A stretch of 26,374 nt of DNA from a virus (IMGVR_UViG_3300020045_000166:1-26374); one strand, 5' to 3'; positions 13,001-26,374 are shown, numbered from the stretch's first letter. A program made the numbers and translations. Notes: a model not told the origin generated them from the letters alone.

Positions 13001-13639
13001 TAGTCTAATGGTATCATCAATCTTTGCTTTCAAGTCAGAGTCAGATGCACCTTTTTCCTTGGCAGACTGATTTAACTTTTCAATATCTCTAGTCAAGCCT
13101 TGGATTTGATCCCTATTAAGACCAAGACCTGAAAACAATTTAACATTCTGGAGATCAGCTATTTCACGATTAATCTTACTTAACCCATCAATGGCGTGGT
13201 CAAAAGGATTAACATTTGCAAATTTATTTAAACCAGTGAAGATTCTATTTAGTTCAGAGAATTCTGAAGATAGGCCACCAATAATCTTCAACTGAGCAGC
13301 CATTGCAGCTTGACCTGCTGTTAAGGCAGTTTCAAACTTGAATTCTTCTGCAGTAAGTTGAATAGTTCTACTACGAAGTAGTTCGGCTTTATCCGCTGCT
13401 TTTTGCAGCATCTTTTCCTTGGCAGAAAGGGCAACAACTTCCTCTTCATCTGCTTTAGCCTTCTTCTTTGCCGCTTGTTCTGCGTCTTGTTTAGTCTTGG
13501 TTGCTTTGCCGGCTGATTTAGCTTCTTCCTCTTCCGCCTTACCAAGTTTTAACATTGAAGCAGAGAGGGCATCAATCGCTTCTTTGGCCTTCAGTAACTG
13601 TTCGGTTGAGCAATTAAATATGAGTGATGTTAGCTCCAC
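7046..13639 (-). CDS. Tail tape measure protein (~2197 aa)
   Basis: Very long helical Ala/Gln/Glu-rich ORF downstream of the G/GT chaperones; lambda-H-like motif QMGDVGVSLAGGMNPLLVMIQQGDQL; Gly-rich hydrophobic segment. GTG at 13639 with an AGGAGA RBS is the likely start. Confidence 0.93.
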   Translation of the reverse strand: MELTSLIFNCSTEQLLKAKEAIDALSASMLKLGKAEEEEAKSAGKATKTKQDAEQAAKKKAKADEEEVVALSAKEKMLQKAADKAELLRSRTIQLTAEEFKFETALTAGQAAMAAQLKIIGGLSSEFSELNRIFTGLNKFANVNPFDHAIDGLSKINREIADLQNVKLFSGLGLNRDQIQGLTRDIEKLNQSAKEKGASDSDLKAKIDDTIRLTSEQSKLLNSLKQQAEEESRLSKQRIDSSAQMFKSHQLFSQQEESNYNKDMQDLKSYFLQQDTQYQAIENSRKESFTNLVQIHKWKQEQDERMYQQDMQDMRAYYSQQEAIANEAERELRAIQNRIDKEIHQTNYMNQGASRSTANVAAGMQTRGVPQDVIDSFVKEANAKELSAKKSRELASAQKHLYDEDARVESILNSLNAAQSQGVNYSERGAVAIAKYEVAMQRAGIAGKEYTDRLNKVKLAQDLMAQQEQKRQSDYIARGVGVQMGDVGVSLAGGMNPLLVMIQQGDQLRSLIQQAGRDGLDLKNVMNDAAAQIVRSFKDVGIAVGTFVSGAFISAGKSIKDALLAPAILAGRLLKTAFSKENLNLDVGPQVSQSTLAWRDFTNTLKGSIPVFASFAAIIGGTLLIATYQFAKAMNEMNSQLIQFGASTGLTLEDAIGLANGLTEIGISSATAMGYVGDFMKSGITNSELLSKSITEAIKLNKYLGISVEDTAKKYADISKKPTEALIKIAEDTGRVTVETLREIHALEEKGKYVEAITLAQEEYTRVTAEMAERGRNDLSDIEKLWIDIKSAVSQSWGQIQQVANNTQIFKGFRDMFAKIKLVIQQAFTIAEGFVRVIYNILSFDFSEATSSALNSYIDDKLAANAKEYSDTITDIYSTTVAQTKAEANRLQQNSKNATHFKDILKKEKKDAEKAEKDAERLRKQALKDQQSLIDLKNKYLGKIEQTTEAEQKYNSIIESDLYTKYPQKTKDIIKADYEAAKAAEIRAKGIEALSEVYKSWMSINKGLESSRLDIASQSEDIKLQYELLGKTGEEYIKIKIQQEESAEINKANLSFEKERLTIVENYIQQMQKITTSNLVPGSEEFNAAVKANADAYESSLKKAEDNFQSGRQVAGERTNLKIVQHYDQIWKEIQTSISEAIYSALFEGGKKGGVKLKELLKAQLKKLAMEPINLVVNFVGSSLGLTSASQGGIGGILSGGSSGLLGALSNLLPTGVTNTLSNIFSTAGSGLGLTNMLGSGLSSLGAATGMSSLSSLGMGMQWGQMGVGMASSVGGLSSSIAALGSTIAKFAPWAGAAMVAYQLIDSFTGSKGGPKSGGDAAYNLQGALSDPGLYTPNTANTQVQQLLAPVMQGIGSLAAMLGGNASSIQSIALGYDTDPSGTASNRIKSMVNGKYLSTDRDLGRDDAALQAGLVAEVNRITIGALKELDLADWADSILVSIDPLTASAEELASALSGLNNMASLAETFNNMGLSVNALSASLITSLGGADNAKQALAGYFDTFYTEGEKFTASSKSVQSALSKMDSAGAFTNVSEAFSKLVSNTTKENFRALVEAASAAGDSQTVAGLLQIAPAFSNVTAALGAVVDATGETVSDLNEIMNNLLNDRTSLQRQILELQGGDIRALDIQGYSAAEIAAYDYNEALRQQVEVLQNAKSVTSSLTSESKSLERRLVELQGGDLRAIDTAGMDSAQVAIFDYNASLKDQIKVLEDAGVAVGEASKDIAGISFNSIVSIITDGMLGRMSESEVGEKLSEVIVGGVYNALVSSYATQITDTFITGIIQPMVTAVLAGQSVANAVSSASINSVVLQAQATMQALGAVLADPAVQLAMKGISTGISGIVGGISSIKFKPFTPASTKTSGGSSKSETVDNTANKALEERSSLERKLLELQGNTVELRRLELLTLSESNRALQQQIWAIEDATAISNERLGLEKQLLELQGDTVALRDMERNALFETNRALYDQVEALRLVKDIANERSGLEKQLLELQGNTTALRELERNALHESNRELYDQIKAIEDSKGAIEGFSKVSGQFAAAWKEVTDSLLNEVKRIRSVTAENSSVGYKALEYQFYDAVERARSGSQEAAKDLVGYSNSLLAGASGEFGSSLELIRYQAQVAGALEETAYILGETLPDMTGLTPIDELVQENRSLNETVGELKTEVVILKQILSNIQSSSRRTADATNGQGEAPMVVVIG
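7590..8830 (-). repeat. Internal protein repeats in the tape measure C-terminus (LE+QLLELQG units)
   Basis: ELQG cores at about 7668, 7815 and 7962 (147-nt period) and about 8607 and 8781 (174-nt period). Confidence 0.85.
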
Positions 13640-14549
13640 AAATCTCTCCTTGACTTCTTTCAAAGTCTGTTATTATTTTAAGTAACTTATCCATACAAGA
13701 GTGATTGTACGTAAACTCTAGTGCGCCATGCTGGTTCATCAAATAGGAGTACCGCACTGTCGCAGCTAAATATATAGCCTTAGTTTCTCCATACTTGTTG
13801 ATAGAGAATGATTTATTTTTACGATTACCGTGTTCGTCTAATATTTCAGCGCGATAGTTATTGTGGTGCTTAGATAAACCCACTACACCTGTTTTCTCGT
13901 TAATCCTGCTAGACACTTTATTTCTACCATTTGTGTGCTGAGATACAAGCCTAAGATTCTTTATCTTGTTATTAAATGGGTCATTATCAATATGATCAAT
14001 CACTAACTTAGAATCAATACTTCCATTAATCAGGCACCAAACAATGCGGTGTACTTTAAAGGTAAAGGTCTTTCCATTAATGGTTACACTCACTCGCCAG
14101 AATAAGGCTTTACCATTCTTGTTAAAGTAATTTCTCCCTGCTATACTATCTTTTGCTTTGCACAAAGCACCCTTGTTCTTGTATGTACTCTTATTGTATC
14201 TAAGACTAGATGGGCTTGTTTCGTCATAGTAGAAGTATTCAGCAAGCACACTAGAGTCTAATTCATGCGCTCTAGTAGGTAACCTCTTATTAACAAGTTC
14301 CCAATTGTCTTGAGGATTCTTAATGTAGTATTCCTCTAGGTCAATTGCTTCACTCTTAGAAAGATTCTCATGTAACTTGACAATATCGTGACCACCTGCT
14401 AGAGTGACAACATCTTGCCGGTCTTTAGTTTTACCTTTACAGGTTTGATTAGCCCTTACAGTTCTTCCGTGTCCGATATAGAAGAAAACTCCATTGTCCT
14501 TACGCTTATGAGCATAACAATAGTAATCCCGCTTCTCTTCAGTATTCAT
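13614..14549 (-). CDS. Free-standing endonuclease: GIY-YIG-like + HNH + AP2-like domains
   Basis: YYCYAH...FYIGHG...RA...EAIDLE...LVN; KVHRIVW...VIDHIDNDPFNNKIKNLRLVS..N; TGVVG...KSFSINKYGETKA. ATG at 14549 with an AGGGA RBS. Confidence 0.88.
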   Translation of the reverse strand: MNTEEKRDYYCYAHKRKDNGVFFYIGHGRTVRANQTCKGKTKDRQDVVTLAGGHDIVKLHENLSKSEAIDLEEYYIKNPQDNWELVNKRLPTRAHELDSSVLAEYFYYDETSPSSLRYNKSTYKNKGALCKAKDSIAGRNYFNKNGKALFWRVSVTINGKTFTFKVHRIVWCLINGSIDSKLVIDHIDNDPFNNKIKNLRLVSQHTNGRNKVSSRINEKTGVVGLSKHHNNYRAEILDEHGNRKNKSFSINKYGETKAIYLAATVRYSYLMNQHGALEFTYNHSCMDKLLKIITDFERSQGEICGANITHI

Positions 14550-14571
14550 TATTATTATTCCCTGATATAAT

Positions 14572-14645
14572 TCCCTGTAATTTATAGGTTGCAATCAGCA
14601 GAGGTACAGGGATACCCTTTTCGTTCCGTCGAACTATCTGATTGC
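14572..14645 (-). ncRNA. Candidate structured cis-regulatory RNA, copy A (three-way junction + pseudoknot)
   Basis: GCAAUCAG-AUA-GUUC(GACG)GAAC-GAAAA-GGGUA(UCCCUG)UACCU-CUG-CUGAUUGC; the loop is complementary to downstream CAGGGA; matches copy B. Confidence 0.7.
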
Positions 14646-14654
14646 TTAAAACTG

Positions 14655-14682
14655 TTGACTTACCTCTACAAACTCTTATAAT
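14655..14682 (+). promoter_or_regulatory. Sigma70-like promoter, antisense to the late operon
   Basis: TTGACT-16 nt-TATAAT. Confidence 0.5.
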
Positions 14683-14691
14683 TCGTACAGG

Positions 14692-14735
14692 AAAGAAAAC
14701 AATAGGGAGTATCAATCCTAGAATCAATACTCCCT
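14692..14735 (-). terminator. Intrinsic terminator after the tail chaperone genes
   Basis: AGGGAGUAU...AUACUCCCU stem (extendable by G-U pairs) followed by AUUGUUUUCUUU. Confidence 0.65.
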
Positions 14736-14743
14736 TCAAGGTG

Positions 14744-15129
14744 TTACTTCGTCTTATTATTCTTCTGTTTATTATTCTTCTTAGCTTCCTCTGAGAAATG
14801 CTCTAACGCTACACTGTCAAGAGCATCAATCAAAGTTATTTCCATCTCATCAAAGTCAATCTTATGCAAAGTAAAATAAGCAAGAATCTCAGAGTATGTA
14901 ATAGGACCAACACCCATTCCATTACTCCTTTTACGATTAAGATCAAGAAAGTATTTCCAAACATATCGCATACTTTCAGGTAATTCAACTAACTCTTCTA
15001 ATTCTTTTGGAACTATTCCAGTTTGTCTAGCTACGGATTCTAGTCTAGCTCTAGTTGAATCACTACCTGATCCTAAAGAGAATTCTTGCTTTGCAAAAGA
15101 TATTAAGCCTTCGATGTCTTCGGTGTAAA
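14744..15129 (-). CDS. Tail assembly chaperone GT extension (expressed by -1 frameshift)
   Basis: The -1 frame is open from the slippery site (YTEDIEGLISFAKQEF...ELPESMRYVWKYFLDLNRKRSNGMGVGPITYSEILAY) to the stop at 14744. Confidence 0.85.
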
Positions 15130-15522
15130 ATTTTGTACATTACTCGATTCCTGCATAATAACTTCACGAATCCAAGAGTGTTGCTTTAGTACAGCTTCAG
15201 CTTTCTCTTTTGAGAATTCAATCTTCTTACCATTTTCAGTGAAACCATCCCAATTGATTAGACGGACAAGGGCTGCTTCGATTGATAGTTCCTCAGCCTC
15301 ATCAAGTGAAGGTTCCCACTCTTTACCCCTGCGCTTCGCAGCTTCATTTTGCTGCTTGAATTCCTTGAACTTCTTCTTACCGTAGTTCTTTACAGTTGGG
15401 GAGAGTTCCCCTAGAATGGTTAGCTTGGCGTCTGACTCAGTACCATCGGGTAGCATGAGATTGAACGTAAAACCTAGTTCTGCTGCTTGCGAAAAGTCTT
15501 GCTTCTGGATATCAAAACCCAT
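15103..15522 (-). CDS. Tail assembly chaperone (gpG-like)
   Basis: Lies between the tail tube and tape measure genes; RLINWDGF..NGKKIEFSKEKA..VL...WIRE; ends just after a slippery heptamer. Confidence 0.85.
   Translation of the reverse strand: MGFDIQKQDFSQAAELGFTFNLMLPDGTESDAKLTILGELSPTVKNYGKKKFKEFKQQNEAAKRRGKEWEPSLDEAEELSIEAALVRLINWDGFTENGKKIEFSKEKAEAVLKQHSWIREVIMQESSNVQNFTPKTSKA
15127..15133 (-). promoter_or_regulatory. -1 programmed ribosomal frameshift heptamer A-AAU-UUU
   Basis: X-XXY-YYZ pattern correctly phased in the G frame (CAA AAT TTT ACA); the -1 frame joins the downstream ORF. Confidence 0.85.
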
Positions 15523-15586
15523 ATAGTTTTCTCCTTTTAAGAGTTAATAAAATCTTAGGTAGAAGTTACCTAAGACGTATAACTAT

Positions 15587-15614
15587 ATTATATCACAGAT
15601 ATTGTAAAAGTCAA
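15587..15614 (-). promoter_or_regulatory. Sigma70-like promoter with extended -10, upstream of the tail chaperone
   Basis: TTGACT-16 nt-TATAAT with TGn; near-identical flanks to the promoter at 23139-23167. Confidence 0.7.
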
Positions 15615-15673
15615 GGTATTTCTGAATATAAATTCCCAATTTCAAAGAGTAAGCATAATATAAGATTAACCCT

Positions 15674-15703
15674 AAAATAAAAGCCCCACCTTTCGGCAGG
15701 GCT
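15674..15703 (-). terminator. Intrinsic terminator after the tail tube gene
   Basis: GCCCUGCC-GAAA-GGUGGGGC followed by UUUUAUUUU. Confidence 0.9.
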
Positions 15704-15727
15704 AATAATCTACAAGTTATAAACTAA

Positions 15728-16936
15728 TTAGGCTTGGCTATCTTGAACAGAAATAACTGAACCAATTAGGCCTGCGGCTGTTACATCGTTTAGTAGAGCA
15801 GTAAAATCAATACTAGATACAATTCCATTTTCACTATCCGCATTGCTGTGGGTTGAAAGTTTGCATTTTGGGAGTACAAAGCTGATAAAATCAGCAGCTT
15901 TATCTTCACCAGCAGTAACGGCTAGAACAATTGAAACTACAGTTTCATCATCGAAGTATCCACGTAGAGTAGCATCACTGAAGTAAGCGGATAGGCTACC
16001 AGTAACATTGATCTTACCTACGAAGATATCACTGTTACTGTTCTGGCCTAGACATTGAGCCGGTTCCATTGCGCGTTCGATAGTCAGGCTTGCATCGGTA
16101 ATACAAGCACCTTCTGAACCATTGATGATAATAGCGCCTTGAACAGCAGTTAGAAGTCCAACAGTATTAGCAGCAGTAGGTGTAGTGAAGTAAGCAGAGG
16201 TGCCAGTTAGACCAAGGTCTTTACCAGTAAATGCTACATCAGTTGTAACGATACCAGATGCGGGTAGTTGAACACCTACGCTAGAAACCTTCATACCTGT
16301 GAATACTTCAGACTGAGCAATATCAGCATACCATTGCTCAATTGTGTAGCTCTCGTCAGTATGACCTGTAGTAGGAACATAAGTAGTCTTACCAACTACT
16401 GTAGTAACAACTGTAGCAATCGGACCTTCAGCGACTAGAGCAGTGCTTGATAGGACCTTGACAGTAAGAACTGTAGCTGACATACTAATAACTAGGCAGT
16501 TGTTACCTACGTTAGCTGCGTTCAGACCTGCGCCAGTCATACGGACTACATTACCAACAAGGATACCATCTGCAAGCCAATCACCAGCACTGCGAGTAAT
16601 CGTAAAGTTAGTACCTGATGCAGCGATAGTAACTGAAGCGGAAGCGCCTGCAACTACAGCAGCGAAATCACGAGCTAGAACGCTACTGATAAAATCTGCG
16701 TACGAACCGGGGGATAGTTCTCCATTTATAGAGCCATCTGCACTGCGCACACCATGTCGCATATCAGCAGTCATGTAGTCAGTGCGGAGTTCATTACTGG
16801 AATATGTTTCTTTAGTGAGATTGAAATCTGCGGAAACTCGACGAACAACTTGTGCACCCGCTGCACCCGCTAGAGTACCAAATGTAGTCTCTTTCTTATA
16901 TGCTACTCGCTTGTTAATCCCTTGACTTTTTGCCAT
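15728..16936 (-). CDS. Major tail (tube) protein, Phage_tube_2-like, with an internal beta-rich insert
   Basis: AYKKETTFGT...SNELRTD...RHG..SADGSINGELS...SYTIEQWYADI...VTGSLSAYF; AGGAG RBS; synteny. Confidence 0.88.
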   Translation of the reverse strand: MAKSQGINKRVAYKKETTFGTLAGAAGAQVVRRVSADFNLTKETYSSNELRTDYMTADMRHGVRSADGSINGELSPGSYADFISSVLARDFAAVVAGASASVTIAASGTNFTITRSAGDWLADGILVGNVVRMTGAGLNAANVGNNCLVISMSATVLTVKVLSSTALVAEGPIATVVTTVVGKTTYVPTTGHTDESYTIEQWYADIAQSEVFTGMKVSSVGVQLPASGIVTTDVAFTGKDLGLTGTSAYFTTPTAANTVGLLTAVQGAIIINGSEGACITDASLTIERAMEPAQCLGQNSNSDIFVGKINVTGSLSAYFSDATLRGYFDDETVVSIVLAVTAGEDKAADFISFVLPKCKLSTHSNADSENGIVSSIDFTALLNDVTAAGLIGSVISVQDSQA

Positions 16937-17042
16937 CTTTTATTTCTCCTGTGCTGTGGATAAAATACCCACTATCAATTAATTGAAAATTTGTATTTGC
17001 AAATACAGATACTATGGTGTATCATTCCTTAACAATGAATCA

Positions 17043-17453
17043 TTACATTGATTCAATAGTTAAATTTATAGAGATTGGGACAACCAATCTGTCTGAAGTA
17101 ACAACTGCCCCTGCAATATGCGGAGATGAAAGGACATTCACTCTTGTAGTTCCCTCTTCAATACTGTACCCTTTGGGGAACAAAGCCTTGATTAATTCTG
17201 CGGTAGTTAATGCACCAGTAGTACCAATGTTTAACTTATCAAGGACATAGACATTGAACTTTGCATTCTCTCTGTAGTAATTGCCACCTACACAAGAGTC
17301 GTCCGGTTGCCCTATTGCAAGCGTACAGCGCAGGTATTTACTACCGTCTGATGGGGAAGTGAAGCTGACGTTCTCAAATGCGATAGGTAGCACAGGTAGT
17401 ATAGTTTTAAGTCTAGTTTCTACTAGCTTCTTAGCTGTGATTAATGCTGACAT
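17043..17453 (-). CDS. Tail terminator / completion protein
   Basis: IAFENVSFTSP...YLRCTL...F.KG pattern; immediately upstream of the tail tube gene. Confidence 0.75.
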   Translation of the reverse strand: MSALITAKKLVETRLKTILPVLPIAFENVSFTSPSDGSKYLRCTLAIGQPDDSCVGGNYYRENAKFNVYVLDKLNIGTTGALTTAELIKALFPKGYSIEEGTTRVNVLSSPHIAGAVVTSDRLVVPISINLTIESM

Positions 17454-17470
17454 AGGTTTCCTTGTTGTTA

Positions 17471-17974
17471 TCAGCCAGCATCATAATACCGCCTTAAATC
17501 AGCTTCATGTGCAGCTTTGATTTGAGTAATAGTCGGAGTACCAATACCATCAGGGGCTTGATCTGATTTCCCAGATTCCAAGTTGGCATAACCCGGACCA
17601 ATAGCTGCAATAGCAAAAGAATTGCCTAGTTGGTAGCTTGACTCAGCTTCATTGAACACATCATTAGCCATTTCACTAGAAGAGAATATCACTGGTGTAA
17701 ATGAAGCTGTACCTTCGGTGTATTGCCATGCACCTGAGTGATAGCCCGGCTCGATAGGAATACCATATTCATCTTGACGATCAAGGTAATAACCTCTGTA
17801 CCTTGAATTCTCTTGCATCATAGCAGCAGCATCACCTACGGGGGTATTTTCACTTGCTGCTAAAGCAACTTCTCTGGCGAATCCAGCAACCATGTTCTTC
17901 AAGCGTCTCTCGACTTCCTTGCTATATTCCTCAAGCTGTTTAGCAATCACATCTGAATTACTTCCTGTAATCAC
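17471..17974 (-). CDS. Neck protein, HK97 gp10-like
   Basis: NTPVGD...G....AW...YANLESGKSDQAPDG motif; GTG start; synteny. Confidence 0.7.
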   Translation of the reverse strand: MITGSNSDVIAKQLEEYSKEVERRLKNMVAGFAREVALAASENTPVGDAAAMMQENSRYRGYYLDRQDEYGIPIEPGYHSGAWQYTEGTASFTPVIFSSSEMANDVFNEAESSYQLGNSFAIAAIGPGYANLESGKSDQAPDGIGTPTITQIKAAHEADLRRYYDAG

Positions 17975-17980
17975 TTTGAG

Positions 17981-18340
17981 TTACCCCTTATAAACGATAA
18001 CCTTGAGGAGTACGACTTCACCCATTGCAGCATGTTCCTTTACAGAATCTACTGTATAGGTAGTACCACTTTGAGTTACTTTATCTTGAGGTTGCGGTTT
18101 GTTCGCAAGATCACTTGCCACGATTAGGTACTCTTTAACTTCTTTAGAGATCAGCGACGGGTAGTTATAAGCATTAACTTTCACATTTTTAGGAAAAGCT
18201 TTTAATACCGTGTTGATTTCTGTATTAACAACACCCCCAGTTTCAGTGCTATACTCGCCTTCAACTATTCTTGTGAAGGTTATTGAAACACCATTAGGGT
18301 AGATGAGGTCTTTTGCTACCTGCAAGAAAGGGTTACTCAT
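17981..18340 (-). CDS. Head-closure (head-tail joining) protein
   Basis: 119 aa, beta-rich, GEYSTETGG and PQPQDKV...YTVDSV; synteny. Confidence 0.7.
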   Translation of the reverse strand: MSNPFLQVAKDLIYPNGVSITFTRIVEGEYSTETGGVVNTEINTVLKAFPKNVKVNAYNYPSLISKEVKEYLIVASDLANKPQPQDKVTQSGTTYTVDSVKEHAAMGEVVLLKVIVYKG

Positions 18341-18350
18341 ATGGTTTGCC

Positions 18351-18779
18351 TCAGAAGGTAGTTGAACCTACAGTATCATCAACATCTCTAGGATATTTCT
18401 CATTTATAGCTAGGGAGTTGATGTTATTGTCAATGGTGTTATTGTTAACTCTCATTTCACTTAATGAAACCCCACCTGCCCAACCACTAAGATTGTTATA
18501 GAGGGGATTAAGTGAGGGGCTTGATATAAACAACTTCAACGCAGCAATCCAATTAGTAGCAGCTTTGCTGCCTTTTATGGAGATGATATCGACCGTCTGA
18601 TCTGTTCGCATTGAAAGTTTGAACATCAGACTACGGGCAACTTCCACACTTGCTCTACCTATTGAGCTTTCATTGCGATCAATAAAATAATTAATCTCAG
18701 TGTCTGACATTACAGGCAGTGAAGGGTCGGAATCACCGACCATGTATCTAACCTCTAAAATTTGGTCTGGTGTTGCCAT
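18351..18779 (-). CDS. Head-tail adaptor protein
   Basis: VRYMVGDSD....MSDTEINYFI motif typical of adaptors following a capsid gene. Confidence 0.75.
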   Translation of the reverse strand: MATPDQILEVRYMVGDSDPSLPVMSDTEINYFIDRNESSIGRASVEVARSLMFKLSMRTDQTVDIISIKGSKAATNWIAALKLFISSPSLNPLYNNLSGWAGGVSLSEMRVNNNTIDNNINSLAINEKYPRDVDDTVGSTTF

Positions 18780-18790
18780 AGGATTACCTC

Positions 18791-18819
18791 AAAAGAGAGC
18801 CTCCTAACCGGAGGCTCTT
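18791..18819 (-). terminator. Intrinsic terminator after the endonuclease gene
   Basis: AGAGCCUCC-GGUUA-GGAGGCUCU followed by CUUUU. Confidence 0.75.
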
Positions 18820-18824
18820 GTTGT

Positions 18825-19637
18825 TTATTCTGGTTTGTTGTAGTACAACTCTTCCATTTGTTTTCTGTAAGCTACAGCATCTTCAAAGGCTCTCTGTTTA
18901 GCCTCATCTTGTGGAAGGTCTGGATGTAGGGTACGAGGATTAAATACCTTCCTCTTGTGTTTTCCACAAATTAATCTATAATCGCAGATGTACCTGAGTT
19001 GGGAAGTGTCCCACTGAACGCCATTAACACCAGTTGTGCTATCTTTTCTAACAGAAACATTCCTTCTATTTTGGTACAGTGTAAATAGTTGCAGGTTCAC
19101 CGGGTTATTATTGAGTCTATTATTATCCATATGGTCTATAACCATGCCTCTTGGAATACTGGTCTTATTTGCCAACACATAAACAACTCTGTGACATGCA
19201 TACAAAACATTATTCACCCTTACATAATAATATCCTGTTGTATCGGAGTAGCAACCGGCATCTGAGTGCATTTCTTTCAAGAGCATTCCTGTATTATACC
19301 TATCAACTTTCCACTTCAATCCAGTTTTACTGTCGTTTGATAGGTATAAGTAATCCTCGAGTATTGTGTGGTCCAATTCCCTTGCATATGAGATGTTCTT
19401 AATTTTATTTAGCAAAACACCTGTAGGGTAATACTCTGTAATCAGCTTCTGTTCTAGTTCTTCAGCCTCTTGCTTAAGAAGAGAGTCCTTGTGGATTTCA
19501 ACAGTGAGGTCATCTATTAAATTTCTGTGTTCTTTATTTCTTGATGTTTTAGCATAAGCCCTATTTCCAGTGCCGTGTCCTATATACCTAATGCAACCTA
19601 GTGAATCTTTATGAAAATAGACATAATATTTATTCAT
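18825..19637 (-). CDS. Free-standing endonuclease: GIY-YIG-like + HNH + AP2-like domains
   Basis: YYVYFH...RYIGHGTGNRA...EAEELE...LLN; ACHRVVY...VIDHMDNNRLNNNPVNLQ; TGVNGVQW...EAKQRAFEDAVAYRK. Confidence 0.88.
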   Translation of the reverse strand: MNKYYVYFHKDSLGCIRYIGHGTGNRAYAKTSRNKEHRNLIDDLTVEIHKDSLLKQEAEELEQKLITEYYPTGVLLNKIKNISYARELDHTILEDYLYLSNDSKTGLKWKVDRYNTGMLLKEMHSDAGCYSDTTGYYYVRVNNVLYACHRVVYVLANKTSIPRGMVIDHMDNNRLNNNPVNLQLFTLYQNRRNVSVRKDSTTGVNGVQWDTSQLRYICDYRLICGKHKRKVFNPRTLHPDLPQDEAKQRAFEDAVAYRKQMEELYYNKPE

Positions 19638-19651
19638 CTGTACCTTCAGAT

Positions 19652-19722
19652 AACCTAATCAATAAGGTCTTATAGAAGAGTAGTAGGTTTCTACCTTTTC
19701 GGGGATCAGCCTATCTATAAGA
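19652..19722 (-). ncRNA. Candidate structured cis-regulatory RNA, copy B (three-way junction + pseudoknot)
   Basis: UCUUAUAG-AUA-GGCUGAUCCCC-GAAAA-GGUAG(AAACCUA)CUACU-CUU-CUAUAAGA; the loop is complementary to downstream UAGGUU; matches copy A. Confidence 0.7.
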
Positions 19723-19743: not shown

Positions 19744-19768
19744 AAAAGGGGCTGTTACCAACCCCTTT
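19744..19768 (-). terminator. Intrinsic terminator after the major capsid gene
   Basis: GGGGUUG-GUAA-CAGCCCC followed by UUUU. Confidence 0.88.
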
Positions 19769-23085: not shown

Positions 23086-23138
23086 ATAACTCCAGAGAAT
23101 AAAACTTGACTTAAAGAGAAACTTGTAGTATATGTAAT

Positions 23139-23167
23139 ATTATATCACGAAGAATTCTAAAAGTCAA
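23139..23167 (-). promoter_or_regulatory. Sigma70-like promoter with extended -10 for the head gene operon
   Basis: TTGACT-17 nt-TATAAT with TGn, in the intergenic gap upstream of the protease gene. Confidence 0.8.
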
Positions 23168-26100: not shown

Positions 26101-26268
26101 TTATGCAGCGTTTAACTCCAGTTCTTTATTCTTACGGAATTCTACAGCAAGTTCAAATGCCTTCTGTTTGGCTTCTTCAAAGGGCAGGTTTGGAAATAGT
26201 TTAATAGGATTAAAACATTTAGACTTCTGTTTCTTGTTCTCAGCCCATATTGCATACCATTTAGACAA
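26101..26268 (-). CDS. 3' fragment of another HNH/AP2-type endonuclease (truncated at the chimeric junction)
   Basis: KCFNPIKLFPNLPFEEAKQKAFELAVEFRK closely parallels KVFNPRTLHPDLPQDEAKQRAFEDAVAYRK of 18825-19637. Confidence 0.75.
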   Translation of the reverse strand: MSKWYAIWAENKKQKSKCFNPIKLFPNLPFEEAKQKAFELAVEFRKNKELELNAA

Positions 26269-26374
26269 CTGTTGTACAGAAGTCCCTTGAACCAATTACT
26301 ACTTTGAACGGTTCTACACCTGAAATTGTATTTCTATCTAATGGAGATATTGTAATGCAACAAGTAATTTTAGA
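26269..26374. repeat. Exact 106-bp inverted copy of 25484-25589
   Basis: ctgttgtacagaagtccc...caagtaattttaga is the reverse complement of 25484-25589 and runs to the last base of the window. Confidence 0.95.

Follow-up and report, generated by a model that had tools for sequence, protein, structure and literature searches.

The stretch of DNA analysed here (the window, 26,374 nucleotides from a virus, IMGVR_UViG_3300020045_000166) carries two nuclease genes among its virion genes, each preceded by a small RNA with a predicted three-armed fold; the RNAs, both genes and the hairpins described below lie on the minus strand. Nuclease gene 1 (13614..14549, 311 aa) sits between the tail chaperone and tape measure genes, its 3' end overlapping the latter, and domain search, residues and fold identify GIY-YIG-like, HNH and AP2 regions in its product. 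Nuclease gene 2 (18825..19637, 270 aa) sits between the major capsid and head-tail adaptor genes; domain search identifies an HNH region and suggests a GIY-YIG-like one, and the protein is 34% identical to that of gene 1 over 221 aa. The initial annotation had called both genes GIY-YIG/HNH nucleases. The HNH part stands, above the Pfam threshold in both proteins. The GIY-YIG part falls below the Pfam cut-off (8 of 35 members reach E 0.05 or lower, the lowest being 7e-4) and is a tentative assignment, backed by an invariant Tyr, Gly-x-Gly, Arg and Asn and a near-invariant Glu and by the resemblance of the predicted gene 1 model to I-TevI and UvrC domains (E 0.12-0.33; TM 0.5-0.6, depending on the target).

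Two RNA elements and their genes

A descriptor scan of both strands recovered exactly two RNA elements in the window, copy 1 at 14591..14645 and copy 2 at 19668..19722, in agreement with the coordinates first annotated. A model built from 94 homologs, with the window copies left out, scored them at 47.1 and 32.6 bits; the next-best match in the window reached 9.6 bits, and this search placed no such RNA beside the third HNH gene (928-1515). As originally described, both copies contain an 8-bp P1, a 5-bp P3 with a basal G-U pair, a CUCU-N-CU junction and the CGAAAAGG segment. The small P2 reported as common to them is indeed present in both, with different sizes: 4 bp and a GACG loop in copy 1, only 2 bp and a 7-nt loop in copy 2.

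In copy 1, the P3 loop (14607..14612) is complementary to two identical boxes downstream. Box 1 (14572..14577), the proximal pseudoknot partner, lies 13 nt beyond P1 and box 2 (14559..14564) at the putative ribosome-binding site, 9 nt before the ATG; each offers 6 bp. In copy 2, the P3 loop (19684..19690) can form 6 bp with box 1 (19652..19657), 10 nt beyond P1, and only 4 bp with box 2 (19642..19645), again at the putative ribosome-binding site and 4 nt before the ATG. The match to box 1 had been noted in both copies at these distances; the second box had been missed in both. The P2 loop of copy 1, GACG (14627..14630), is a predicted kissing loop of the 2-bp CG type, on family statistics and the precedent of retroviral GACG loops in the available text of PMC7357161. 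Family statistics likewise suggest the self-complementary GAUC in the P2 loop of copy 2 (19704..19707) as a kissing word.

The energy model folds copy 1 alone into the junction (z -2.72). It gives no junction fold for copy 2 alone (z -0.96), and with flanks a rival long hairpin beats the junction, computed without its pseudoknot, at -20.2 vs -17.7 kcal/mol. Terminator-like hairpins lie upstream of both copies, one 3' of the tail chaperone gene (14704..14735, from the hairpin listing) and one 3' of the major capsid gene (19745..19768, recognised by eye and absent from the computed site listing). No clear sense-strand promoter of its own was found at either window copy, and together with the upstream hairpins this makes the expression of both uncertain. 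In the one sequencing run compared, probably of DNA, most contigs (22 of 28) were under 90% alike, and among the pieces listed none covered either RNA.

RNA and gene are missing together at homologous sites in two cultured relatives. The copy 1 site (RNA and gene 1) is empty in Curvibacter phage P26059A and in DC31, the copy 2 site (RNA and gene 2) is empty in DC31, and the window is empty where P26059A carries gene 0020 with an RNA. This pattern of presence and absence in P26059A and DC31 is the one sought for free-standing homing endonucleases, and because of the empty sites the mobile RNA and nuclease cassette proposed earlier is supported at the level of sequence. P26059A has two RNA copies, each with a promoter-like site, and its RNA precedes a nuclease of an unrelated type.

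A catalogued family with two loop-complementary boxes

The initial annotation could assign the RNA to no named family, a statement that no longer holds. Copy 1 matches the Rfam int-alpA family, RF02996, with 40.0 bits (model 1-71), above the gathering cut-off of 35.8 bits. In a search restricted to 241 nt, copy 2 reaches 33.9 bits with E 1.2e-5 (model 1-71), narrowly below the cut-off, and it returns no RF02996 match in the whole-window Rfam scan. Both copies match all 71 positions of the model. Copy 2 is a sub-threshold P2 subtype of int-alpA, without formal membership; the subtype, with its 2-bp P2 and GAUC-containing loop, is common among phages, and decay was ruled out since the core recurs unchanged in many of them. 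Both elements are real, but their family is already catalogued and widespread in phages; its novelty is gone, and the mechanism is what remains of interest. Rfam types the family as 'Gene; sRNA', and we take the motif to derive from Weinberg et al. 2017. The body of that paper (PMC5737381) makes no mention of int-alpA; the first pseudoknot or the P2 palindrome may already be described in its supplement. No functional study of the RNA was found in the literature searched: the available text of PMC12370729 lists int-alpA in two E. coli genomes without a functional test, and that of PMC13612085 uses the words int and alpA as gene names.

The window copies share with int-alpA the three-way junction with its UAG, GAAAA and CU joints, the covarying P1-P3 and a tail that is rich in U and has box 1 at its end. 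They differ in context, preceding free-standing nucleases in a virion operon instead of lying between int and alpA. The family name presumably refers to a position between integrase and alpA genes, whereas the neighbours here are virion genes and nucleases. Homologs above the cut-off also precede varied genes, so that context does not define the family. A further difference is that box 2 lies past the end of the Rfam model. No pseudoknot appears in the structure line of cmscan, a notation unable to display one.

Across the family, the junction covaries: 85% of cells are paired, with a score of 0.70 vs 0.18 for shuffled alignments (0 of 500 shuffles) and 0.10-0.17 for slid-register controls, which bears out the earlier statement that pairing is conserved while sequence changes. 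Helix sequences vary, whereas the junction nucleotides hardly change, most of the latter being fixed by the search patterns used. Two features thought to be conserved did not extend to the family, since a pattern based on AGAUAG returned mostly noise and 91 of 94 homologs have G-C as the basal pair of P3. Searches for loci with a single protein yielded just 3 and 1.

The proposed pairing between loop and tail was upheld. In a de-duplicated set, the P3 loop matches box 1 with at least 5 pairs in 71 of 83 RNAs, against 10.4 ± 2.9 with swapped loops, and a match falls within 20 nt before the start codon in 56 of 78 (14.5 ± 3.3 with swapped loops). A second set of 89 RNAs, retrieved with a different search pattern, gave 78 matches to box 1 and 60 to box 2, against 9.9 and 12.3 with swapped loops. 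The match to box 1 is longer than that to box 2 in 53 of 81 RNAs, equal in 15 and shorter in 13. Of the two boxes, it is box 2 that matches the anti-SD better in 60 of 73; by sequence, box 2 sits over the predicted ribosome-binding site. A -10-like hexamer lies directly upstream of the RNA in 26 of 89 cases vs 2 of 89 further up. The linker after P1 has a mean U content of 0.43, and a terminator-like U tract at this position was rejected as a general feature of the RNAs tested (at least 4 U in 8 nt in 36 of 80).

The RNA had also been tied to these particular nucleases. It does stand at the same place in 6 of 7 distinct full-length GIY-HNH relatives, in one of them weakly. Elsewhere the downstream genes are mixed, with no shared pathway: among 74 proteins tested, 13 belong to nuclease families, 7 are antirepressor, Rha or Bro types and 36 fall in no family.

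A self-complementary P2 loop

A search pattern that left the P2 loop unfixed returned 33 distinct P2 loops, of which 23 contain a 4-nt palindrome (8.6 ± 2.3 expected); P3 loops are depleted in such palindromes (12 of 79 vs 25.9). At a length-defined register, chosen after the data had been seen and scored on related sequences that are not independent, both positions pair in 30 of 49 distinct P2 hairpins vs 6.0 ± 2.2 (0 of 20000 shuffles) and the centre pair forms in 41 of 49 vs 23.1, with 2 of 49 at slid registers. A stricter fixed inner region leaves a smaller excess (28 of 43 vs 16.8 ± 3.0, maximum shuffle 29), and when the 18 distinct 4-mers are taken as the sample, the outer pair by itself falls short of significance (8 vs 4.7, p 0.07). 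The palindrome is missing at the register in 19 of 49 hairpins, including copy 1, whose GACG allows only about 2 pairs. The AGCU loop class could pair with the 5' arm fixed by the pattern; with the AGC class removed, the excess persists (23 of 36 vs 4.8). The loop word varies and stays palindromic, with at least 8 different versions. Among 63 RNAs, a second copy of the P2 word in cis shows no excess, either upstream (13 vs 13.1) or downstream (8 vs 9.6).

Possible modes of regulation

Sequence comparison establishes the predicted junction, the two loop-complementary boxes, the placement of box 2 on the ribosome-binding site and the self-complementarity of the P2 loop, and supports the translational switch among the four functions first offered; overall, the initial reading of the RNA is partly supported. 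We put at about even the chance that a leader of the int-alpA type represses translation of its own gene when two copies pair. In a single molecule, the P3 loop would rest on box 1, which is nearer and usually the longer match, leaving the ribosome-binding site free. As transcript accumulates, two molecules would kiss through their P2 loops, and the partner's P3 loop would then pair with box 2 and block initiation. For this, the partner's P3 loop would have to leave the box 1 of its own molecule, or the partner could be a short form without the tail. The outcome would be protein-free negative feedback, an RNA-only concentration sensor portable to any dosage-sensitive phage gene. The model requires a freed P3 loop, and we infer the direction of ON and OFF. 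Copy 2 speaks against it, with only 4 pairs at box 2 and a rival hairpin that beats the junction when the pseudoknot is left out of the calculation.

Self-complementary loops of 2 to 6 pairs, GACG among them, are known from retroviral GACG loops, the HIV-1 DIS and guanidine-II ACGR loops (available parts of PMC7357161 and PMC516450). These serve genome packaging or join two hairpins of one molecule, whereas int-alpA has one such loop per leader. The tandem pair of ACGR hairpins of guanidine-II does not occur here, where copy 1 has one GACG loop and copy 2 none, and the guanidine-II Rfam model gave no match. Natural riboswitches known as intermolecular dimers are not listed in the available part of the review (PMC7357161).

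A purely cis-acting switch, in which a metabolite, an ion or a host or phage protein binds the conserved UAG/GAAAA/CU core and makes the P3 loop change from one box to the other within one molecule, is in our view unlikely. It would make good sense of the nearly invariant junction nucleotides amid variable helices (with the caveat on search patterns given above) and of two alternative pairings that look like an expression platform, and preQ1-III docks a ribosome-binding site on a loop in cis (PMC7357161, in part). The P2 palindrome would then be structural or incidental, which leaves its covariation across so many words unexplained, and the downstream genes have no pathway in common.

Less probable still is that nothing switches, and that an equilibrium of the two pairings sets low, constant translation of toxic genes, any dimer only stabilising the RNA. 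RNA hairpins over the ribosome-binding sites of the T-even homing endonucleases I-TevI, segB and mobE limit translation (PMC2988022, in part), and many genes downstream of int-alpA RNAs encode nucleases or antirepressors. The T-even structures, however, are simple hairpins that transcription from a late promoter leaves out, whereas an int-alpA RNA is a junction whose loop has two alternative partners, and it usually opens its own transcript. A plain hairpin would be enough for constant repression, and the conserved competing box 1, with its longer match, would relieve rather than impose it.

We consider improbable, by a shade more, an antisense role like that of C4/CI, in which a processed short RNA builds up and acts in trans to repress transcripts with the same loops, whether incoming or resident; its specificity would be of the immunity type, instead of self-counting. 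C4 of phages P1/P7, likewise a phage RNA of three stems, is excised from a precursor of its own, and its variable loop pairs with the ribosome-binding region of a gene in the same operon and occludes it (PMC5320573, in part); the antirepressor, Rha and Bro genes downstream and the sRNA typing by Rfam would suit such a role. Both C4 loops pair with the target, whereas in int-alpA the P3 loop does so and the second loop matches itself and not the tail, its word having no excess partner in cis. The Rfam C4 model gave no match at E up to 5 or 10, and U enrichment in the linker after P1 is only moderate. This reading overlaps with the dimer model, the main difference being the source of the second copy.

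A ribozyme, a nuclease cofactor or guide RNA, or a DNA-level dyad operator is very improbable. HEARO-like cofactor RNAs keep a fixed partnership with one nuclease family, and 4-nt palindromes are also DNA methylation sites. The cofactor and operator readings could draw on the GIY-HNH relatives that carry the RNA, but the same RNA precedes unrelated proteins, including non-nucleases, with no fixed partner; its loop covaries with its own 5' leader and not with an insertion target; the G-U pairs and asymmetric loops suit RNA; and scans of the window and of copy 2 matched no self-cleaving ribozyme family in Rfam (hammerhead, pistol, twister, HDV-like).

Extending the dimer model to the whole family, we tentatively suggest, at somewhat below even odds, that int-alpA RNAs are a widespread protein-free copy counter that dimerises through a self-complementary loop while the partner's second loop shuts its own ribosome-binding site. 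Two freely variable address loops would allow several circuits side by side in one phage, and through the counter, nucleases, antirepressors and replication genes could be informed of co-infection or of the number of genome copies. If true, this would be a natural RNA switch that works between molecules and needs neither a protein nor an antisense gene on the opposite strand; it would explain the self-limited dose of mobile nucleases and antirepressors in many phages and supply synthetic biology with an orthogonal feedback part. Should the cis pairing alone hold, the gain in annotation is modest. The comparison yields a specific prediction, namely that a 90-nt RNA dimerises and represses translation in trans with sequence-programmable specificity. 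Neither loop is the same in the two window copies, so each RNA would count its own message alone. Two matches occur in 7 of 50 records searched; among two-copy records (the window and P26059A included, two being related) the loop words differ in 9 of 9, which is not significant at a shared-word chance of 0.175, and two of the pairs share a GC centre.

Two RNAs of the int-alpA type

The initial annotation described a 55-nt pseudoknotted RNA, which it could not place in a named family, before both GIY-YIG/HNH genes, and two such elements are present in the window: copy 1 at 14591-14645 (-), before nuclease gene 1, and copy 2 at 19668-19722 (-), before nuclease gene 2. Both elements are real and are new members of the catalogued int-alpA family (Rfam RF02996). 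Copy 1 scores 40.0 bits and so clears the 35.8-bit cut-off, which 18 of 20 hand-picked homolog loci also passed; copy 2, at 33.9 bits in a local search, falls short of it. No third int-alpA-type copy was found in the window by a descriptor scan or a homolog-built model. The fold originally described, a three-way junction of helices P1, P2 and P3, stands for copy 1 (z -2.72) but not, by energy alone, for copy 2 (z -0.96), whose P2 has only two pairs. Decay of copy 2 is rejected, since its core recurs in many of 92 distinct sequences found with a pattern built for that core; copy 2 is therefore a subtype.

At the level of aligned sequences, the anatomy and covariation of int-alpA are established. 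Among 94 aligned homologs, the window copies left out, 15 of 17 pairs change on both sides, and the covariation score is 0.70, compared with 0.18 for shuffled and 0.10-0.17 for slid controls. Because the search patterns prescribed the joint nucleotides, their invariance in this alignment is no evidence. In three homolog loci (L797:11844-11899, L327:1130-1187 and L244:196-251) the basal P2 pair is C-G instead of G-C, a compensatory change at pattern-fixed positions. Three patterns put the number of stored stretches in the viral collection at about 700, 350 and 2200, chance matches included. From 120 loci of the genome collection the parser kept 27 distinct RNAs; titles there name Pseudomonadota, Planctomycetota, Acidobacteriota, Nitrospirota, Chloroflexota and deltaproteobacteria. 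Several phage loci (L128, L146, L161, L193, L194, L215) have the RNA directly after an apparent tRNA 3' end, with tRNAs confirmed only in L128; an RNA so placed would get a processed 5' end. A match to phage vB_AbaS_TRS1 (81%) was obtained for an Acinetobacter copy (L436:1270-1400); it falls at a Rha-type gene, and the phage record annotates a terminator beneath it.

We take the int-alpA motif to originate from Weinberg 2017. The main text of that paper does not name it, and the supplement may already describe the pseudoknot or the palindrome. A literature search, with subscription papers mostly outside its reach, found no functional study of int-alpA.

Loop pairing and a proposed mechanism

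Two boxes are complementary to the P3 loop: a proximal one beyond P1 (box 1) and another about 12-16 nt further on, at the ribosome-binding site (box 2). In a first set of 83 RNAs, de-duplicated from 113, box 1 makes at least 5 pairs with the P3 loop in 71 (10.4±2.9 when loops are swapped), and a P3-loop match falls within 20 nt upstream of the start codon in 56/78 (14.5±3.3 swapped). A second set, drawn with a different pattern and sharing a few contigs with the first, gave box 1 in 78/89 and box 2 in 60/89, vs 9.9 and 12.3 with swapped loops. Of 73 RNAs, 60 show the better pairing with an anti-SD motif in the box 2 region and 12 show it in the box 1 region; box 1 is the longer P3-loop match in 53 of 81. 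Copy 1 carries two identical 6-nt boxes; the P3 loop of copy 2 makes 6 pairs with box 1 and 4 with box 2.

The P2 loops of the window, GACG in copy 1 and GAUC inside a 7-nt loop in copy 2, suggested a kissing interaction, and the search was therefore run with P2 left free; filters blind to loop sequence kept 104 of 109 distinct matches and dropped 5. A 4-nt palindrome is found in 23 of 33 distinct P2 loops (vs 8.6±2.3) and, within a fixed inner region, in 28/43 (vs 16.8±3.0); in the P3 loops of these RNAs palindromes are under-represented (12/79 vs 25.9). With the register set by hairpin length, a choice made after the data were seen, 30 of the 49 hairpins pair at both positions (vs 6.0±2.2) and 41 have the centre pair (vs 23.1), as against 2 of 49 when the register is slid by one. 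Eight different words occur (AGCU, GGCC, UGCA, GAUC, CGCG, GCGC, CCGG and UCGA), and the 8 centre-pair exceptions are GACG and UAGC, where CG or GC sits one position later. When the 18 distinct 4-mers are counted, significance persists for the centre pair (16 vs 6.9); the outer pair by itself does not reach it (8 vs 4.7). The surrounding sequence shows no enrichment of a further P2 word; the partner, if any, is therefore another molecule. Retroviral RNAs form two-pair kissing dimers via GACG loops (PMC7357161, PMC516450). Long-armed P2 variants (L248:1096-1163, L332:1095-1155) lie before related nucleases, and their loop holds a 6-nt A/U palindrome.

We propose that in a single molecule the P3 loop would pair with box 1 and the message would be translated, and that two molecules could kiss via their P2 loops, so that the P3 loop of the partner would cover box 2. 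The outcome would be feedback on transcript level, suited to dose-sensitive genes. Translational control via the P3 loop is likely; the chances that the predicted pairing between RNA copies is functional appear evenly balanced, and the full reading of int-alpA as a self-counting RNA is tentative and somewhat doubtful. The value of these results lies in giving an orphan RNA family a quantified, testable mechanism. Analogies are the T-even endonuclease hairpins for control at the ribosome-binding site region (PMC2988022), phage C4 RNA (PMC5320573), and RNA dimers for kissing between copies (PMC7357161, including section 5).

Downstream genes and mobility

A lysis and virion gene block lies on the minus strand of the window, a virus record of 26 kb. 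Judged by capsid protein, the closest cultured relatives are Limnohabitans phage DC31 (40%), followed by Curvibacter phage P26059A (37%). In P26059A the copy 1 site is empty of RNA and gene alike; the copy 2 site holds the RNA together with a related nuclease. A second RNA of P26059A precedes an unrelated nuclease, and RNA and gene are both absent from the window at that place. In DC31 the copy 1 and copy 2 sites each lack RNA and gene. The proposal of a mobile RNA+nuclease cassette thus holds, RNA and gene being absent together at P26059A and DC31 sites.

Specificity of the RNA for these nucleases was not borne out: nuclease families account for only 13 of the 74 downstream proteins scanned. 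They were taken from 83 automatically picked proteins, many of them truncated by the locus end; the nine omitted were both window genes, four picks that were primase-like or doubtful, and three proteins of very short length. Seven belong to antirepressor, Rha or Bro families, others to helix-turn-helix, primase, integrase, methylase, tail and sugar-enzyme families, and 36 of the 74 had no family match. Among 161 nuclease-relative loci, the N-terminal domain is present in 7 distinct loci, five with a clear RNA, one with a weak match in the expected position and one with none; an RNA match occurs in 1 of the other 153. Two of the five clear-RNA loci were in the model training set and were found independently by Rfam.

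Nuclease genes and expression

Nuclease genes 1 and 2 share 34% identity across 221 residues. HNH_3 is above the Pfam cut-off in both proteins; the N-terminal domain is GIY-YIG-like: its Pfam score is below cut-off, and across an alignment of 35 relatives its Tyr, Gly-x-Gly, Arg and Asn do not vary. The predicted model of nuclease gene 1 (mean pLDDT 87) resembles I-HmuI (E 6e-5) and, at E 0.12-0.33, the GIY-YIG domains of I-TevI and UvrC. The 3' end of gene 1 overlaps the tape measure gene start (13614-13663), and similar tails end several homologs, which suggests that many phages carry a member of this clade immediately ahead of the tape measure gene. Behind the ribonucleotide reductase gene comes a third HNH-AP2 gene (928-1515, +), which lacks the GIY-YIG-like domain; a hairpin lies just upstream of it, and neither Rfam nor our own model found an int-alpA RNA there. 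At the window's end lies the C-terminal portion of an apparent fourth HNH-type gene (26101-26374, -), its upstream region outside the record, with a tail similar to those of homolog proteins P0004-P0007.

A -10-like hexamer lies just upstream of 26/89 RNAs, vs 2/89 further up, and precedes both P26059A copies. No clear sense promoter was found for either window copy and both come after terminator-like hairpins, so their expression may depend on read-through. Just upstream of copy 1 there is a near-consensus sigma-70 promoter (14655-14682, +; 11/12 matches), which is directed away from the RNA and runs antisense to the tail chaperone genes. The minus strand has further promoter-like sites of this kind, one at 15587-15614 and, as judged by eye, another near 23120-23150. 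In some phages the two tail chaperone frames are joined by frameshift, and frames 15103-15522 and 14744-14971 (-) are arranged like such frames around region 14972-15103.
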